Shown piece by piece: positions 23,712-64,000 of a stretch of DNA of 64,000 nucleotides. Source of the DNA: an uncultured Bacilli bacterium (GTDB taxonomy: Bacteria > Bacillota_I > Bacilli_A > RF39 > UBA660); the NCBI GenBank assembly GCA_947600335.1, contig CANQGB010000001.1, positions 2,443-66,442 on the forward strand, in the 5' to 3' direction. Numbering within the stretch: the first letter of the stretch is position 1; the number at the start of each line of letters is the position of its first letter. A program made the position numbers and the translations under genes. The notes under the pieces were generated by a model. That model searched no databases, had not been told where the DNA came from, and saw only the letters and a program-made list of their open reading frames with translations.

Positions 23712-24566
23712 ATGAAAGTTGATATTATATGTCCATTATATAATGCTGAAAAGTATCTTAAAAAATTGCACGAATCATTTTTGAATCAAAAAAAGGTGAA
23801 TTTACATAAAATTAAATATATATTGACTGAAAGCAATGATTTTACATTAGACATATTAAAAAAATTAAAAAGCAATAAATGTGAATTTGTCTTAATAAAA
23901 AAAGAAGACTTTTCACACAGTTTAGTAAGAGAAAATGCTGCTTTTGAAAGCAAAGCGGATATAATTGTTTTTGTAACGCAAGATATTGAAATAAAAAACG
24001 ATAATTGGTTAGAAAATCTTGTAAAACCAATTGAGAAAGACAAAGTAGCTGCGACATATAGTAGACAACTAACAAAATATAATAATATTGAAAAATATAC
24101 TAGAGAAGCAAATTATCCAGAAAAGTCTTTAATAAAATCTAAAATAGACATTGATAAACTAGGATTAAAAACTTTCTTTTCATCCGATGCTTCTGCTGCA
24201 ATAAAAAGAGATATTTTTGTAGAACTTAATGGATACGATCATAAAGATTTGCCTATTAGTGAAGATATGTATTTTACCTATAAGCTTATTATGAGCGGCC
24301 ATAAAATAAAGTATTGTGCTGATTCAGTAATATATCATTCACATAATTTTACCTTAAGTGAAATTTATAATCGTTATAAATTAACAGGAGAATTTTTTAA
24401 AGAAAATAGTTACTTAGATAAATATGGAACTGATAGCTCAGGATTTACTCTAGCTAAATATGTTTTTAAAAGAATTATTCAAGAACATAGATTTACTCTT
24501 TTAATTAGATTCCCTTTTGATATGGGTGCTAGGTTAATTGGCATGAAAGTTGGGAAGTGGTTTTAA
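23712..24566 (+). CDS. glycosyltransferase family 2
   Basis: N-terminal DIICPLYNAEKYL, an internal DxD-type acidic region (SEDM), GT-A fold features. Confidence 0.65.
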   Translation: MKVDIICPLYNAEKYLKKLHESFLNQKKVNLHKIKYILTESNDFTLDILKKLKSNKCEFVLIKKEDFSHSLVRENAAFESKADIIVFVTQDIEIKNDNWLENLVKPIEKDKVAATYSRQLTKYNNIEKYTREANYPEKSLIKSKIDIDKLGLKTFFSSDASAAIKRDIFVELNGYDHKDLPISEDMYFTYKLIMSGHKIKYCADSVIYHSHNFTLSEIYNRYKLTGEFFKENSYLDKYGTDSSGFTLAKYVFKRIIQEHRFTLLIRFPFDMGARLIGMKVGKWF

Positions 24567-25799
24567 ATGATCGATTCAAATAAAAATGAACTAAAAAATA
24601 TTATCATTATTAATGATTTTGACTATGTACAAGGTGGAGCCAGTAAAGTTGCGATAGATACAGCAAATTCACTGGCTGAAAAAAATTATAATGTAATATT
24701 TTTTTGTGGAATATCAAGTTCCTTATCTCAACTAAATACAAAGGTAAAAAAAATATGTACCAATCAATACGAAGCTTTAAAAGATAAAAATCGAGTTCGA
24801 GGATTAATAAATGGGCTTTATAATTTTAAATCAGAAAAAATATTTAATAATTTATTAAAAGAATATGACAATAAAAATACTATTATCCATATCCATGGTT
24901 GGTCAAAATGTTTGTCTAGTAGTGTTATAAATGCTGGCTTTAAAAAAAAGTTTAAAATTGTATTGACTATGCATGATTACTTTACGGCATGTCCTAATGG
25001 TGGTTTTTTTAATTATCCAAAAAATGAAATTTGTAAATTGAAAGCATTATCTAGTAAGTGTATGATGTGTAATTGTGATTCAAGGAATTATTTATATAAA
25101 ATCTATAGGATAATAAGACAATTAATACAAAAAAATATTGTAAAATTAAACAAAAAAATAGAAAACGTTATATCAATATCTGATTTTAGTGAAAAAATAC
25201 TTAAGCCTTATCTTCCAAAAGATAAAGTAAATATTTATAGAGTATATAATCCAATTGAAATTATGAATGTTAAAAATGATATTAGTAAAAATCAATATTA
25301 CTTATTTGTTGGACGATTATCTCCTGAAAAAGGTGTGGAAACTTTTTGCAATGCAATTAGCAAAAGCAAGAAAAAAGGGATAGTTGTTGGAGATGGACCT
25401 GAAATGAAAAGATTGTCTTTAAAATATCCTGAAATAGATTTTGTTGGATGGAAAAATAAGCATGAGGTCGCTGATTATATGATTAAAGCAAAAGCATTAA
25501 TTTTCCCAAGTTTATGGTATGAAACAGTTGGCCTTACTTTACTTGAAGCCAATATGGTAGGCGTTCCTGGCATAGTAAGGAAAAATATTGCCACATCTGA
25601 ATTTGTACAAGATAATGTAAATGGCTTTTTATTTTCCAATGATGAAGATTTAATTAAAATATTGAAAAAATACGACACTATGTCTAAAGATACACTGTTA
25701 AATATGTCTAGATTAGCTAAATCAAATGCTAAAAATTATACTTATCAAAAATATATATATGATTTAGAAAAATGTTATAAAAATATAATTAATTCATAA
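24567..25799 (+). CDS. glycosyltransferase family 4 (GT-B)
   Basis: C-terminal EANMVGVPGIV...EFVQDNVNGFLF matches the GT4 E-x7-E motif region. Confidence 0.7.
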   Translation: MIDSNKNELKNIIIINDFDYVQGGASKVAIDTANSLAEKNYNVIFFCGISSSLSQLNTKVKKICTNQYEALKDKNRVRGLINGLYNFKSEKIFNNLLKEYDNKNTIIHIHGWSKCLSSSVINAGFKKKFKIVLTMHDYFTACPNGGFFNYPKNEICKLKALSSKCMMCNCDSRNYLYKIYRIIRQLIQKNIVKLNKKIENVISISDFSEKILKPYLPKDKVNIYRVYNPIEIMNVKNDISKNQYYLFVGRLSPEKGVETFCNAISKSKKKGIVVGDGPEMKRLSLKYPEIDFVGWKNKHEVADYMIKAKALIFPSLWYETVGLTLLEANMVGVPGIVRKNIATSEFVQDNVNGFLFSNDEDLIKILKKYDTMSKDTLLNMSRLAKSNAKNYTYQKYIYDLEKCYKNIINS

Positions 25800-25842
25800 T
25801 GTTGAAAATAAATTAAATTTTTATTTAAAGGAGGTAAAATTT

Positions 25843-62171: not shown

Positions 62172-62209
62172 AGAATAGTAAAAAAATTAGTAAGAAATGA
62201 GGACTAAAA

Positions 62210-63379
62210 ATGGCAAATATATTAATTGGTGGAGATTTTGTACCAACCCAATCAAATTATAAATATTTTATAAAAAATGATTTAGAAAATTTATTTGGTA
62301 AGGATTTATTTAATTTATTAATAAATGCAAATTATAAAATATTTAATTTAGAAGCCCCAATAACTAATTGTAATAAAAAAATCTCTAAAGAGGGGCCGAA
62401 TTTAAAAATCAATCCTGAAATTATTAAAGGAATAAAAAAATTAAAAATAAATTTATTTTCTTTAAGCAATAATCACATATTAGACTATGGAGAACAAGGC
62501 TTAATTGACACTATTAAATATTTAAATCAATGTAACATTTCATATGTTGGAGCTGGAAACAATTTAAAAGATGCATCAAAAATATTTACATTTGAAATAA
62601 ATAAATTAAAAATAGGTGTGTATTCATGTACAGAACATGAGTACACTTTAGCTACAAATAATACCTCAGGAGCAAATCCCTTTGATGCTTTATATAGTTT
62701 AGATCATATTTTTGAAGCAAAGCAAAAAGTAGACTATTTAATAGTAATATATCATGGAGGGAAGGAATATTATAAATATCCAACTCCATATTTGCAAAAA
62801 GTATGCAGAAGAATTGCAGAAAAAGGAGCAGACTTAATATTATGTCAACATAGTCATTGCATTGGAACATATGAAAATTATATGAATTCAAAAATATTAT
62901 ATGGGCAAGGAAATTTTCTTTTTGACAGAAATGATTCCCGCCATTTTTTAGAAAAACAAACAGGGTTGCTTGTATCTTTAGAAATAGATGATGTGAATAA
63001 TAAAATAATTCCATCACTAATTCCTATAAAAAAACAAAAAGAAAAAATCTTTTTAGCTGATGAAAATGAAAAGGCACAAATTTTAAAACAATTAAAAGAA
63101 GATTCAGAAAAAATAATAAATGATAGTTTTATAAAAAATAATTATAATAAAATTTCCAAAATAGATGGTGGTAGATATTTAGTGAGACTATCAAAAATTG
63201 GAACTTTACTTGTGGCAGTAGATAATAAATTTTTTAAAAGCAAAATATTTAATCATTATTTTATTCCATTTAATTCTAAACAAAGGCATACTTTAGAAAA
63301 TATGCTTCAATGTGAAGTGCATAATGAACTCGTTTTAAATTATTTAAAAAATGTAAATAATAAAGGTAACAACAAATGA
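62210..63379 (+). CDS. CapA/PgsA family metallophosphatase-fold capsule biosynthesis protein
   Basis: ILIGGDFVP, LSNNHILDYG, YVGAGNN, HGG.EY, CQHSHCIG. Confidence 0.6.
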   Translation: MANILIGGDFVPTQSNYKYFIKNDLENLFGKDLFNLLINANYKIFNLEAPITNCNKKISKEGPNLKINPEIIKGIKKLKINLFSLSNNHILDYGEQGLIDTIKYLNQCNISYVGAGNNLKDASKIFTFEINKLKIGVYSCTEHEYTLATNNTSGANPFDALYSLDHIFEAKQKVDYLIVIYHGGKEYYKYPTPYLQKVCRRIAEKGADLILCQHSHCIGTYENYMNSKILYGQGNFLFDRNDSRHFLEKQTGLLVSLEIDDVNNKIIPSLIPIKKQKEKIFLADENEKAQILKQLKEDSEKIINDSFIKNNYNKISKIDGGRYLVRLSKIGTLLVAVDNKFFKSKIFNHYFIPFNSKQRHTLENMLQCEVHNELVLNYLKNVNNKGNNK

Positions 63380-64000
63380 AGATTTTAAATGTTTCTACAT
63401 CAAGTTTAGTTTATAATGGCATTGGGATTGTTTTGCTAAATTATTATCAGAATATAAAAAATAATGATATTCAATTAGATTATATATCTCCAAGTGTAGT
63501 TCCAATAGAATTAAAAAAATCTTTTACAGTAAGAGGAAATAATATATTCGAATTAACACACAATAATAAAAAAATGAGACAAAAAAGGCCTATAAAATAT
63601 TGTATTAAATTATATAAGATTATTAAAAGGGAAAATTATGATATTATACATGTTCATGGCTCAAGTTCAATGATGGTTATGGAACTATTAGTTGCTAAAT
63701 TTGCTGGCGTTAAATTTAGGATAGCTCATAGTCATAATACCAAATCTGACAATAAAATTTTAAATTTTCTTTTCCGCCCTTTATTTAAAAAAAGCTATAC
63801 ACATGCTTTTGCTTGTGGAAAGGAAGCTGGTATTTGGCTTTTTGGAAATCATGCAAATTTTAAAATAATTCCTAATGGAAAAAATTGTGATTTATATGAA
63901 TATAATATAGACACTAGAAAAAAAATTAGAAAAAAATATAATTATTCTGAAAATGATATTGTAATTGGGCATATTGGAAATTTCATTGAACAAAAAAATC
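63376..64000 (+). CDS. glycosyltransferase family 4 (3' partial at window edge)
   Basis: GT4 N-terminal domain pattern (ILNVSTSS, DIIHVHG). Truncated by the window end. Confidence 0.5.
   Translation, partial: MKILNVSTSSLVYNGIGIVLLNYYQNIKNNDIQLDYISPSVVPIELKKSFTVRGNNIFELTHNNKKMRQKRPIKYCIKLYKIIKRENYDIIHVHGSSSMMVMELLVAKFAGVKFRIAHSHNTKSDNKILNFLFRPLFKKSYTHAFACGKEAGIWLFGNHANFKIIPNGKNCDLYEYNIDTRKKIRKKYNYSENDIVIGHIGNFIEQKN

Follow-up and report, generated by a model that had tools for sequence, protein, structure and literature searches.

The last 40.3 kb (23712-64000) of a 64-kb stretch of DNA from an uncultured Bacilli bacterium (GenBank assembly GCA_947600335.1, contig CANQGB010000001.1), here called the window and used for all coordinates, are likely to form a mosaic island, in which three heteropolysaccharide cassettes of the Wzx/Wzy type are separated by candidate anti-phage and mobile genes, and in which decoration of the polymers is gated by poly-G tracts. 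Our main family scans, run against Pfam, NCBIfam, PADLOC and PDB sequences on open reading frames (ORFs) of at least 100 amino acids (aa) across the window, together with the repeats in the sequence, placed three co-directional cassettes in this glycan region, A (23712-37196), B (47344-57969) and C (60318 to beyond 64000), with candidate defence and mobile genes between them at 37.4-47.1 kb and 58.8-60.0 kb (Table 1).

A first-pass annotation of this DNA had proposed that several Wzx/Wzy-type glycan gene sets stand in tandem, which was borne out by family matches and predicted folds. It had counted two loci; we count three, since the Alg14/Alg13 pair and the leader sequence in front of it recur at 60062-61300, where they start cassette C. 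Nor is the region one contiguous locus with more than 40 kb devoted to glycan synthesis: glycan genes add up to 27.8 of the 40.3 kb, and about 30% consists of defence-like genes, mobile genes and intergenic sequence. The four acyltransferase-3 genes (30574, 34097, 36081 and 56971) and the single hexapeptide acetyltransferase gene (49447) that it had listed all match the corresponding Pfam families at these positions, and they represent a heavy capacity for O-acylation. Its family calls for Alg14/Alg13, the TupA-like ATP-grasp and the CapA-like protein likewise stand by Pfam, except that there are two Alg14/Alg13 pairs and not one. As for its flippase and polymerase calls, Wzx at 32630 and Wzy at 54214 have Pfam matches, while Wzy at 25843 and Wzx at 55461 are recognised at the level of predicted fold only. 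It had made no mention of the repeated 5' module, the predicted ribofuranosyltransferase, the mutase homologue or the defence candidates, nor of what the switches consist of.

Poly-G tracts in the cassettes

The 64 kb contain exactly five runs of G or C of at least 6 nucleotides (nt). All five are G9 or G10, against 0.001 runs of at least G9 expected from composition, and the window has no shorter runs of 6-8 nt. Every tract reads as G on the coding strand. Four of them lie within genes, are in frame (ON) and encode Gly-Gly-Gly, although GGG is the rarest glycine codon in the window (9.7%). The fifth sits in the spacer of a perfect sigma-70-type promoter, where slippage by one G changes the spacer from 17 to 16 or 18 nt; only two perfect promoters occur in the 64 kb (36023-36051 and 58776-58804), with 0.22 expected. 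The five G tracts probably act as random on/off switches. Of the phase-variable switches that the first-pass annotation had mentioned, the tracts themselves and their effects on frame or spacer are thus present in the sequence, whereas their actual switching in this organism is something that we infer.

Same-strain contigs from five metagenome assemblies matched the window collinearly, at 99.3-100% identity. Two independent assemblies both have the promoter tract as G10, and the single assembly that covers the tract of acyltransferase-3 no. 2 likewise has G10. One assembly breaks inside this latter tract, with contig L014 ending and contig L013 starting there, and a contig from another sample starts 8 nt after the tract of the hexapeptide acetyltransferase gene; in total, three contig ends, at two tracts, are located inside a tract or no more than about 10 nt away from one. 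These breaks are suggestive of length heterogeneity, but are not decisive at 2-3x coverage.

Tract-length differences were found among relatives. We recovered 80 metagenome loci with the TupA-like protein of cassette C (986 kb, not assigned to taxa; hereafter the related loci), and these contain 33 runs of at least 8 G, every one of them on the coding strand. Orthologous tract sites vary from G8 to G11 between samples (L081, L084, L086, L090, L092 and L094), with ON/OFF consequences: a sugar-transfer ATP-grasp gene is in frame with G11 and out of frame with G8, G9 or G10, a TupA-like gene is in frame with G9 and out of frame with G10, and a Wzy-like gene is in frame with G8 and out of frame with G9. 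Therefore, homopolymer contingency switching looks recurrent in this class of loci. The tract-bearing genes of the relatives encode a DegT aminotransferase, GT4 and GT32 glycosyltransferases, hexapeptide acetyltransferases, two kinds of ATP-grasp protein and an acyltransferase-3 protein. Coding-strand tracts of G8-G11 are also present in L030, L046, L060, L075 and L077.

Two other forms of switching were considered and set aside. Switching by invertible promoters was rejected, as the inverted repeats of the window are long-range and AT-rich, match at 70-84% and have no promoter between them. Poly-A/T runs were not counted as switches: the eight runs of at least 9 nt are about what a rough composition estimate gives by chance. 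In the literature available to us, we found no report of poly-G switching in glycan loci of Firmicutes or Clostridia, which is weak evidence of novelty and no proof of absence.

A shared cassette head and a missing initiation module

Cassettes B and C open with the same leader, R2, a 258-nt sequence (47092-47349 and 60062-60320, both on the plus strand) that is near-identical in the two copies through the start codon of the first gene. R2 begins with an A/T-rich hairpin followed by T8, has more G+C than its surroundings and is predicted to fold more stably than shuffled versions of itself (z -3.1). A role as cis-regulatory RNA or as antitermination target is conceivable. Its assignment to a known RNA was rejected, with no Rfam match at gathering or permissive thresholds, and no homologue of it was found in the 80 related loci. 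In one of these loci, L031, a NusG paralogue stands at the position equivalent to R2.

Downstream of the leader, the Alg14/Alg13 genes of B (48409-49364) and C (60345-61300) share 94.7% DNA identity, and the head of C differs from that of B only by the missing epimerase gene. A 1.2-kb direct repeat, 95-98% identical, flanks cassette B. The genes for a short-chain dehydrogenase/reductase (SDR), Alg14, Alg13 and TupA are contiguous in several related loci (L027, L031, L051 and L062), with up to 82-85% protein identity, and by sequence comparison this 5' module is a conserved cassette head.

Relatives carry a Bac_transf phosphoglycosyltransferase (L051, L060, L068 and L077) immediately upstream of this head; their upstream genes also include Wzz/tyrosine-kinase genes (L031 and L051), UDP-glucose dehydrogenases and the NusG paralogue of L031. 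At the equivalent position the window has an IS110 transposase and an ATPase with a DUF4143 domain (PDC-S01). The absence of an initiating phosphoglycosyltransferase, already pointed out in the first-pass annotation, was confirmed by our scans, as neither Bac_transf nor Glycos_transf_4 was matched by any scanned ORF of the whole 64-kb window. No chain-length regulator/tyrosine kinase and no LCP enzyme was found among the same ORFs. Judged against the relatives, the missing initiator is a real anomaly.

A further repeat, R1, occurs in two copies 20.5 kb apart, with cassette A and the genes behind it in between. Its 143-aa ORF is acidic-tailed and has no family match.

Gene content and setting

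The features of the region are collected in Table 1.

Table 1. Features of the glycan region and flanking repeats, in window coordinates (GT2 and GT4, glycosyltransferase families 2 and 4)
Feature	Position	Strand	Evidence and remarks
Repeat R1, copy a: 143-aa ORF (22809-23240) and about 235 nt of upstream sequence	22809-23475	ORF -	Self-comparison; between lepB and cassette A
Cassette A
GT2 glycosyltransferase	23712-24566	+	Glycos_transf_2 5e-17
GT4 glycosyltransferase	24567-25799	+	Glycos_transf_1 9e-22
Polymerase/ligase-fold membrane protein, Wzy candidate	25843-27225	+	Predicted fold; 460 aa, multi-pass
GT4 glycosyltransferase	27226-28356	+	Glycos_transf_1 5e-29
GT2 glycosyltransferase	28363-29292	+	Glycos_transf_2 6e-21
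UDP-galactopyranose mutase-homologous flavoprotein	29312-30526	+	PDB 3ukk and related 1e-30, residues 3-318; Amino_oxidase, NAD_binding_8
Acyltransferase-3 no. 1	30574-31629	+	Acyl_transf_3 3e-19; G9 tract inside
G9 tract in acyltransferase-3 no. 1	30670-30678		nt +96; ON; G8 or G10 gives 38 or 37 aa
GT2 glycosyltransferase	31622-32599	+	Glycos_transf_2 3e-10; G10 tract inside
G10 tract in GT2	32407-32416		nt +785; ON; one-G change gives stop at 265-270 of 325 aa
Wzx flippase	32630-34090	+	Polysacc_synt 4e-28; MurJ and MatE also match
Acyltransferase-3 no. 2	34097-35182	+	Acyl_transf_3 5e-24; G10 tract inside
G10 tract in acyltransferase-3 no. 2	34190-34199		nt +93; ON; one-G change gives 36-50 aa
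Sigma-70-type promoter, TTGACA-17 nt-TATAAT	36023-36051	+	12/12 match; G10 in spacer (36035-36044); 30 nt upstream of acyltransferase-3 no. 3
Acyltransferase-3 no. 3	36081-37196	+	Acyl_transf_3 1e-19; G10 promoter-spacer tract upstream
Between A and B
PDC-S01 candidate (DUF4143), most of ATPase domain missing	37424-38353	+	PADLOC 5e-104, profile positions 173-432 only; DUF4143 8e-32
Two-gene unit: 519-aa protein, then 1039-aa UvrD-like helicase with C-terminal zinc ribbon	38565-43281	+	UvrD-helicase 3e-50
Repeat R1, copy b: 143-aa ORF and flank	43332-43998	ORF -	About 93-94% identical to copy a
PDC-S01 candidate ATPase (AAA_14 and DUF4143)	44197-45489	+	PADLOC 8e-61; Pfam
IS110-family transposase	45486-46697	-	DEDD_Tnp_IS110 1e-31; Transposase_20
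Cassette B
SDR, UDP-uronate 4-epimerase-like	47344-48393	+	Epimerase 4e-56; PDB 5u4q 1.5e-113, 6zl6 2.5e-45; TviC-like
Alg14-like (48406-48870) and Alg13-like (48858-49364) split glycosyltransferase	48406-49364	+	Alg14 4e-11; Glyco_tran_28_C 4e-14
Hexapeptide acetyltransferase	49447-49926	+	Hexapep 4e-9; 159 aa; G10 tract inside
G10 tract in hexapeptide acetyltransferase	49698-49707		nt +251; ON; one-G change gives 90-96 of 159 aa
427-aa protein without assigned family	49960-51243	+	Homologues adjoin TupA-like genes in two related loci
Predicted two-domain ribofuranosyltransferase (HAD-type phosphoribose phosphatase and glycan phosphoribosyltransferase)	51218-53197	+	PDB 7shg 1.6e-21; 659 aa
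TOD1/MUCI70-type glycosyltransferase-like protein	53249-54196	+	PF04765 2e-12
Wzy-type polymerase	54214-55446	+	Wzy_C 5e-14
MOP-superfamily flippase (Wzx-like)	55461-56957	+	Predicted fold; 498 aa, multi-pass
Acyltransferase-3 no. 4	56971-57969	+	Acyl_transf_3 9e-31; no tract
Between B and C
PDC-S01 candidate ATPase	58832-60046	+	PADLOC 2e-147; perfect promoter 58776-58804 upstream
Cassette C
Alg14-like (60318-60806) and Alg13-like (60794-61300) pair, second copy	60318-61300	+	Pfam; 94.7% DNA identity to B pair
TupA-like ATP-grasp, amidoligase candidate	61269-62171	+	ATPgrasp_TupA (PF14305) 1.7e-86, full profile
PGA_cap (CapA-like) protein	62210-63379	+	PGA_cap 2.6e-53; GD, NNH, HGG and HSH motifs
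GT4 glycosyltransferase, cut by window end	63376-64000	+	Glyco_transf_4 4e-9; ATG overlaps PGA_cap stop codon

The G+C content of the window is 20-33% in 2-kb windows and 20-26% in the glycan cassettes. The closest named TrmD belongs to a 'Bacilli bacterium' metagenome-assembled genome (73% identity), and among species-representative genomes the PGA_cap protein has relatives of 26-27% identity only. The first 22.7 kb carry housekeeping and sporulation-related genes, among them genes for a MiaB-like radical SAM protein, for GerM and SpoIIIAH-like domains, for an ABC exporter with a C39 peptidase and for LemA; rimM, trmD, rplS and the signal peptidase gene lepB precede the island, and the glycan cassettes start after lepB. 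Upstream of the cassettes we also noted a protein of 962 aa (2484-5372) with an N-terminal prepilin-type methylation motif and weak matches to HYR and thrombospondin-type repeats, which may be a large pilin-like surface protein, and, 8 kb before cassette A, a DUF368/VCA0040-like protein (15295-16095, minus strand) whose family is described in Pfam as undecaprenyl phosphate translocase-like. Two non-coding gaps in or after cassettes (35182-36022 and 57969-58775, about 800-850 nt) hold short ORFs without family match and may be remnants of lost genes.

Predicted chemistry of the three cassettes

The membrane proteins at 25843 (cassette A) and 55461 (cassette B) gave no Pfam or NCBIfam match, and their comparisons with in-window paralogues and PDB sequences were not significant. 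For both, alignments of homologues were built and structures were then predicted. The best structural match of the 25843 model is the ligase WaaL, not a polymerase, and at the level of the model we retain this protein as a Wzy candidate. The 55461 model (AlphaFold2; predicted local distance difference test score, pLDDT, 82) matched MurJ in Foldseek with template modelling (TM) scores of 0.70-0.78 and also matched WzxE, which makes the protein a Wzx-like MOP flippase at fold level. Its family has more than 4000 homologues and is without a Pfam or NCBIfam model; one member is named 'O-antigen/teichoic acid export membrane protein' (JGI). Members of the family carry the name 'sugar isomerase' in NCBI, and one homologue of 565 aa (P0117) has a precomputed hit to a TupA-like ATP-grasp domain.

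In cassette A, the flavoprotein at 29312 scores far below the cut-off of TIGR00031 (bacterial Glf), and its homologies make it a likely candidate for a pyranose-to-furanose mutase. In cassette B, the best PDB match of the SDR at 47344 is 5u4q, deposited as dTDP-glucose 4,6-dehydratase; 6zl6, which we take to be the UDP-GlcA (UDP-glucuronic acid) 4-epimerase of B. cereus, is listed in the PDB table as epimerase domain-containing protein only. The 427-aa protein at 49960 had no match in Pfam, NCBIfam, PADLOC or PDB.

The 51218 protein aligns over residues 29-601 with residues 32-626 of 7shg, nearly full length, and Pfam and NCBIfam place a HAD domain at residues 35-232. 7shg belongs with the gPRT-PRP enzymes, in which a C-terminal glycan phosphoribosyltransferase adds ribose 5-phosphate from phosphoribosyl pyrophosphate (PRPP) and the phosphate is then cleaved off by an N-terminal module of HAD type (PMC11294581). 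A simple search of the 51218 protein for the motif DxDx[TV] found none. On the basis of its homology, we predict that 51218 encodes a PRPP-dependent ribofuranosyltransferase.

Cassette C brings together a TupA-like ATP-grasp and a PGA_cap protein, a family that belongs to the calcineurin-like metallophosphoesterase superfamily. A uronate epimerase accompanies the TupA-like gene in 31 of the 80 related loci and the flippase family of cassette B does so in 30. In 10 of the 64 related loci with room for it, PGA_cap is the next gene downstream of the TupA-like gene, in the same orientation and at a distance of 18-459 nt; we regard the two genes as a recurrent, unstudied pair. The ORFs scanned across the 64 kb include no UDP-glucose dehydrogenase, and the SDR that resembles uronate epimerases sits in cassette B.

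A precedent for the TupA-like protein comes from Campylobacter jejuni, where the TupA-like domain at the C terminus of Cj1438 converts the C6 carboxylate of glucuronic acid into an amide, using ATP and serinol phosphate or ethanolamine phosphate; the phosphate is afterwards cleaved off by a second enzyme, the HAD phosphatase Cj1435 (PMC11800379). Besides this domain, we found no other biochemically characterised TupA-like ATP-grasp in the literature. With this precedent and the co-occurrence of the epimerase, amide decoration by the ATP-grasp, as the first-pass annotation had suggested, is plausible. The same annotation had drawn a parallel with teichuronopeptides from ATP-grasp and CapA; our data do not support CapA as a pointer to a polymer of the poly-glutamate or teichuronopeptide type. 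Poly-gamma-glutamate synthesis was ruled out, as the window encodes neither CapB nor CapC; the neighbours of PGA_cap are instead the TupA-like ATP-grasp and a GT4 glycosyltransferase. By sequence, the closest solved relatives of the PGA_cap protein are chains deposited as poly-gamma-glutamate synthesis protein, and the NCBIfam match of the PGA_cap protein to MslH suggests that these chains are the lasso-peptide epimerase MslH. Our working idea, by analogy with C. jejuni, is that PGA_cap may be the hydrolytic partner of the amidoligase.

Considering these assignments, we propose the following model. Repeat units would be built on undecaprenyl phosphate, primed by a phosphoglycosyltransferase that, judging from the families present, would be encoded outside the window. 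In B and C the second sugar would come from the shared Alg14/Alg13 enzyme, and cassette-specific transferases would extend the unit. The polymer of cassette A likely contains a furanose, because a UDP-galactopyranose-mutase homologue is encoded there, and that of cassette B likely contains galacturonic acid and ribofuranose, because the cassette encodes a uronate 4-epimerase and a PRPP-dependent ribofuranosyltransferase, both predicted. PGA_cap would work with the TupA-like amidoligase, possibly by taking the phosphate off the amine-phosphate donor, in parallel with Cj1435 and the C-terminal domain of Cj1438. The MOP flippases would flip the units and the proteins of Wzy/WaaL fold would polymerise them. 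Five decoration functions, namely three acyltransferase-3 proteins, one GT2 and the hexapeptide acetyltransferase, would each be gated by a G9-G10 tract, and their independent switching in a clonal population could give up to 32 decoration states. The benefit may be escape from phages or from antibodies and immunity, in keeping with the neighbouring defence candidates.

Candidate defence genes between the cassettes

The three PDC-S01 proteins are mutually very divergent. PDC-S01 is a computational defence candidate, assigned here by sequence match, and published work describes it as abundant in rumen genomes and archaea. The third gene is intact in the window, and in two other same-strain assemblies (L010 and L011) deletions of 50 nt and about 24 nt split its ORF. 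The IS110 transposase is up to 43.5% identical to annotated IS110 transposases on plasmids.

The UvrD-like helicase matches the PADLOC helicase models of DRT and GajB, and the 519-aa protein upstream of it has no family match, including in PADLOC. We did not call the pair Gabija: the GajB models match the helicase, but its partner matches nothing. The two genes may be an undescribed two-gene defence unit.

Variation among relatives

The region is not invariant among relatives. A relative with an 84%-identical flippase shares only a block of four genes (TOD1-Wzy-Wzx-acyltransferase) with cassette B and then diverges; beyond the block it has an epimerase, a gene with a SocA/Panacea domain that we interpret as a module of toxin-antitoxin type, and another set of transferases. 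Together with the poly-G tracts, this divergence supports the view of the first-pass annotation that the glycan region is hypervariable. Within the strain, contig L010 (6289-6967, compared with window 48427-49105 and 60363-61041) has Alg14/Alg13 genes in the C position that are nearer to the B copy than to the C copy of the window (7 versus 13 mismatches). This hybrid copy could reflect gene conversion or be an assembly chimera at low coverage.

Weighing the alternatives

Several observations weigh against the mosaic island of switchable cassettes proposed here. The lack of an initiating transferase, a chain-length regulator, an LCP ligase and a UDP-glucose dehydrogenase in the window puts the completeness and expression of the cassettes in doubt, and the visible part of cassette C, inside which the window ends, is without epimerase, Wzx and Wzy. 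The fold of the 25843 protein is common to polymerases, ligases and O-oligosaccharyltransferases, PGA_cap adjoins the TupA-like gene in only 16% of the related loci, and the literature that we found treats PDC-S01 as a candidate only. With regard to switching, no difference in tract length was seen in this organism in the assemblies that span tracts (two for the promoter, one for acyltransferase-3 no. 2), and the contig breaks at tracts could come instead from the 2-3x coverage or from homopolymer sequencing error.

The lack of length variation among this strain's assemblies, and the fact that two-colour Illumina chemistry can create poly-G, would fit tracts that are sequencing or assembly artefacts or neutral sequence. 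We consider this most improbable, as the tracts are internal and are seen again in independent assemblies, four ORFs that contain them read in frame to the expected length, one tract gives exactly a 17-nt spacer between perfect hexamers, the window has five long runs on one strand and none of 6-8 nt, and homologous loci have tracts with the same strand bias and ON/OFF differences. The anomaly at the cassette heads raises another question, namely whether the cassettes are silent or decaying cargo, or an archive whose members become active only when they recombine, by way of the shared 5' module, into an expression site at another location. The position held in relatives by the transferase, the regulators and UDP-glucose dehydrogenase is occupied here by IS110 and a PDC-S01 gene, the 1.2-kb direct repeat of 95-98% identity flanks B, and one same-strain assembly has a C copy of Alg14/Alg13 nearer to the B copy (7 versus 13 mismatches). 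Nevertheless, all ORFs are intact and the four intragenic tracts are in frame, which speaks for expression being still under selection; acyltransferase-3 no. 3 has a perfect promoter in front of it, and with 3x coverage the hybrid copy may have arisen as a chimera during assembly. The missing initiator would equally be accounted for if one distant transferase served several clusters, and we judge silent or archived cassettes quite unlikely.

Another possibility is that B and C are one system, in which C provides the uronic-acid polymer of B with amidation (TupA and PGA_cap) and with further transferases; a local duplication that took up a PDC-S01 gene would then have left the repeated leader and Alg14/Alg13 genes behind as a by-product. 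We give this possibility a minor though real chance. The clustering of the TupA-like gene with the epimerase (31/80) and with the B-type flippase family (30/80), the contiguity of SDR-Alg14-Alg13-TupA in L027, L031 and L051 and the lack of epimerase, Wzx and Wzy in visible C all speak for it; however, a full leader through the start codon and an Alg14/Alg13 pair of its own would be redundant for C inside a single operon, a separately promoted defence gene stands between B and C, and C runs past the window, where its own Wzx and Wzy may lie. It is less probable that one or more cassettes make protein O-glycans (on S-layer, pilin or flagellin) or a wall-linked secondary polymer, with the Wzy_C/WaaL-fold proteins being ligases or oligosaccharyltransferases. 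The best structural match of 25843 is indeed the ligase WaaL and Pfam describes Wzy_C as 'O-Antigen ligase', an SLH-domain protein adjoins the related cluster L031, and the large pilin-like protein is encoded at 2484-5372. Against this, the flippase and polymerase-fold pair per cassette and the many transferases resemble capsule and exopolysaccharide (EPS) loci; polymerase and ligase are inseparable by sequence or fold, and the window has no chain-length regulator or LCP gene to argue either way. Altogether, three separate Wzx/Wzy-type cassettes in a mosaic island remain our favoured reading.

Which phages, antibodies and lectins recognise a gut bacterium depends on its surface glycans, and for uncultured lineages sequence is the only access to them. 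The chemistry predicted here comprises furanoses, PRPP-derived ribofuranose, amidated uronic acid and several O-acyl groups. If switching were true at the level of reads, homopolymer phase variation would extend to a lineage and a habitat in which invertible promoters are the main known mechanism. Moreover, such loci are probably under-represented in metagenome-assembled genomes because poly-G tracts break short-read assemblies at these genes. In a bolder extension, poly-G contingency switching would be a general and overlooked means of glycan diversification in Gram-positive or other gut commensals, as suggested by the strand-biased G8-G11 tracts of the TupA-type loci with their ON/OFF differences and by the five window tracts, one of them a promoter-spacer rheostat; the cassettes, without initiation module but with a recombinogenic shared head, and the defence genes would form here one integrated anti-phage island that couples receptor variation to defence inside the cell. 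This extension seems to us rather doubtful.

Comparison with known systems

Homopolymeric poly-G switching is a textbook trait of Campylobacter, Neisseria and Haemophilus. The closest functional analogue of the region is the capsule locus of C. jejuni (HS:2, NCTC 11168), a species with a low-GC genome in which poly-G tracts switch capsule-modifying genes. The repeat unit of that capsule is described as containing ribofuranose and a furanose sugar, which are also predicted for the window cassettes. Both loci have a TupA-like ATP-grasp, which in C. jejuni amidates a uronic acid before a separate phosphatase step (PMC11800379). The C. jejuni capsule, however, relies on an ABC transporter and a poly-Kdo lipid anchor in a Gram-negative envelope, whereas the window has flippases and polymerases of the Wzx/Wzy type and belongs to Bacillota. 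The amidoligase of the window is free-standing and not part of a multidomain transferase, its neighbouring hydrolase is of the PGA_cap family and not a HAD phosphatase, and one of the window tracts is located in a promoter spacer.

The Wzx/Wzy loci of streptococci and lactic acid bacteria consist of co-directional genes for transferases, Wzx, Wzy and O-acetyltransferases, with a conserved 5' module followed by a variable part; in the cps locus of S. pneumoniae, Cps14F/G is an Alg14/13-like pair that acts early. The gene order of the window cassettes is like that of these streptococcal and lactobacillal capsule and EPS loci. Unlike these loci, in which LCP, phosphatase, chain-length/kinase and initiating transferase genes come first, the window is without such a head, which its relatives do have, and it carries three tandem cassettes with defence genes between them.

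Bacteroides species have several alternative surface polysaccharide loci per genome, which are switched on and off stochastically and have been linked to phage escape. Their switching depends on invertible promoters, recombinases and NusG-like UpxY proteins, whereas in the window it would occur by homopolymer slippage on decoration genes and not on whole loci; we found neither convincing promoter-flanking inverted repeats nor a NusG paralogue in the window.

Two further comparisons concern single components. The 51218 protein, with its N-terminal HAD-type and C-terminal phosphoribosyltransferase modules, resembles the gPRT-PRP ribofuranosyltransferases (Thermobacillus composti 7SHG, the prototype of K. 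pneumoniae and Salmonella STM0726), but its gene is part of a cassette of the Wzx/Wzy type from an uncultured member of Bacillota. The window shares a protein of the PGA_cap family with the CapBCA system and an ATP-grasp of the TupA family with the teichuronopeptide system of Bacillus halodurans (TupA); unlike CapBCA, the window has no CapB-type ligase or CapC, and its PGA_cap is coupled to the TupA-like protein and a GT4 glycosyltransferase in a glycan cassette. Every component is of a known kind, and what sets the island apart is its host lineage, the density of tracts, including one in a promoter spacer, a duplicated head without initiation module and the alternation of cassettes with defence candidates.

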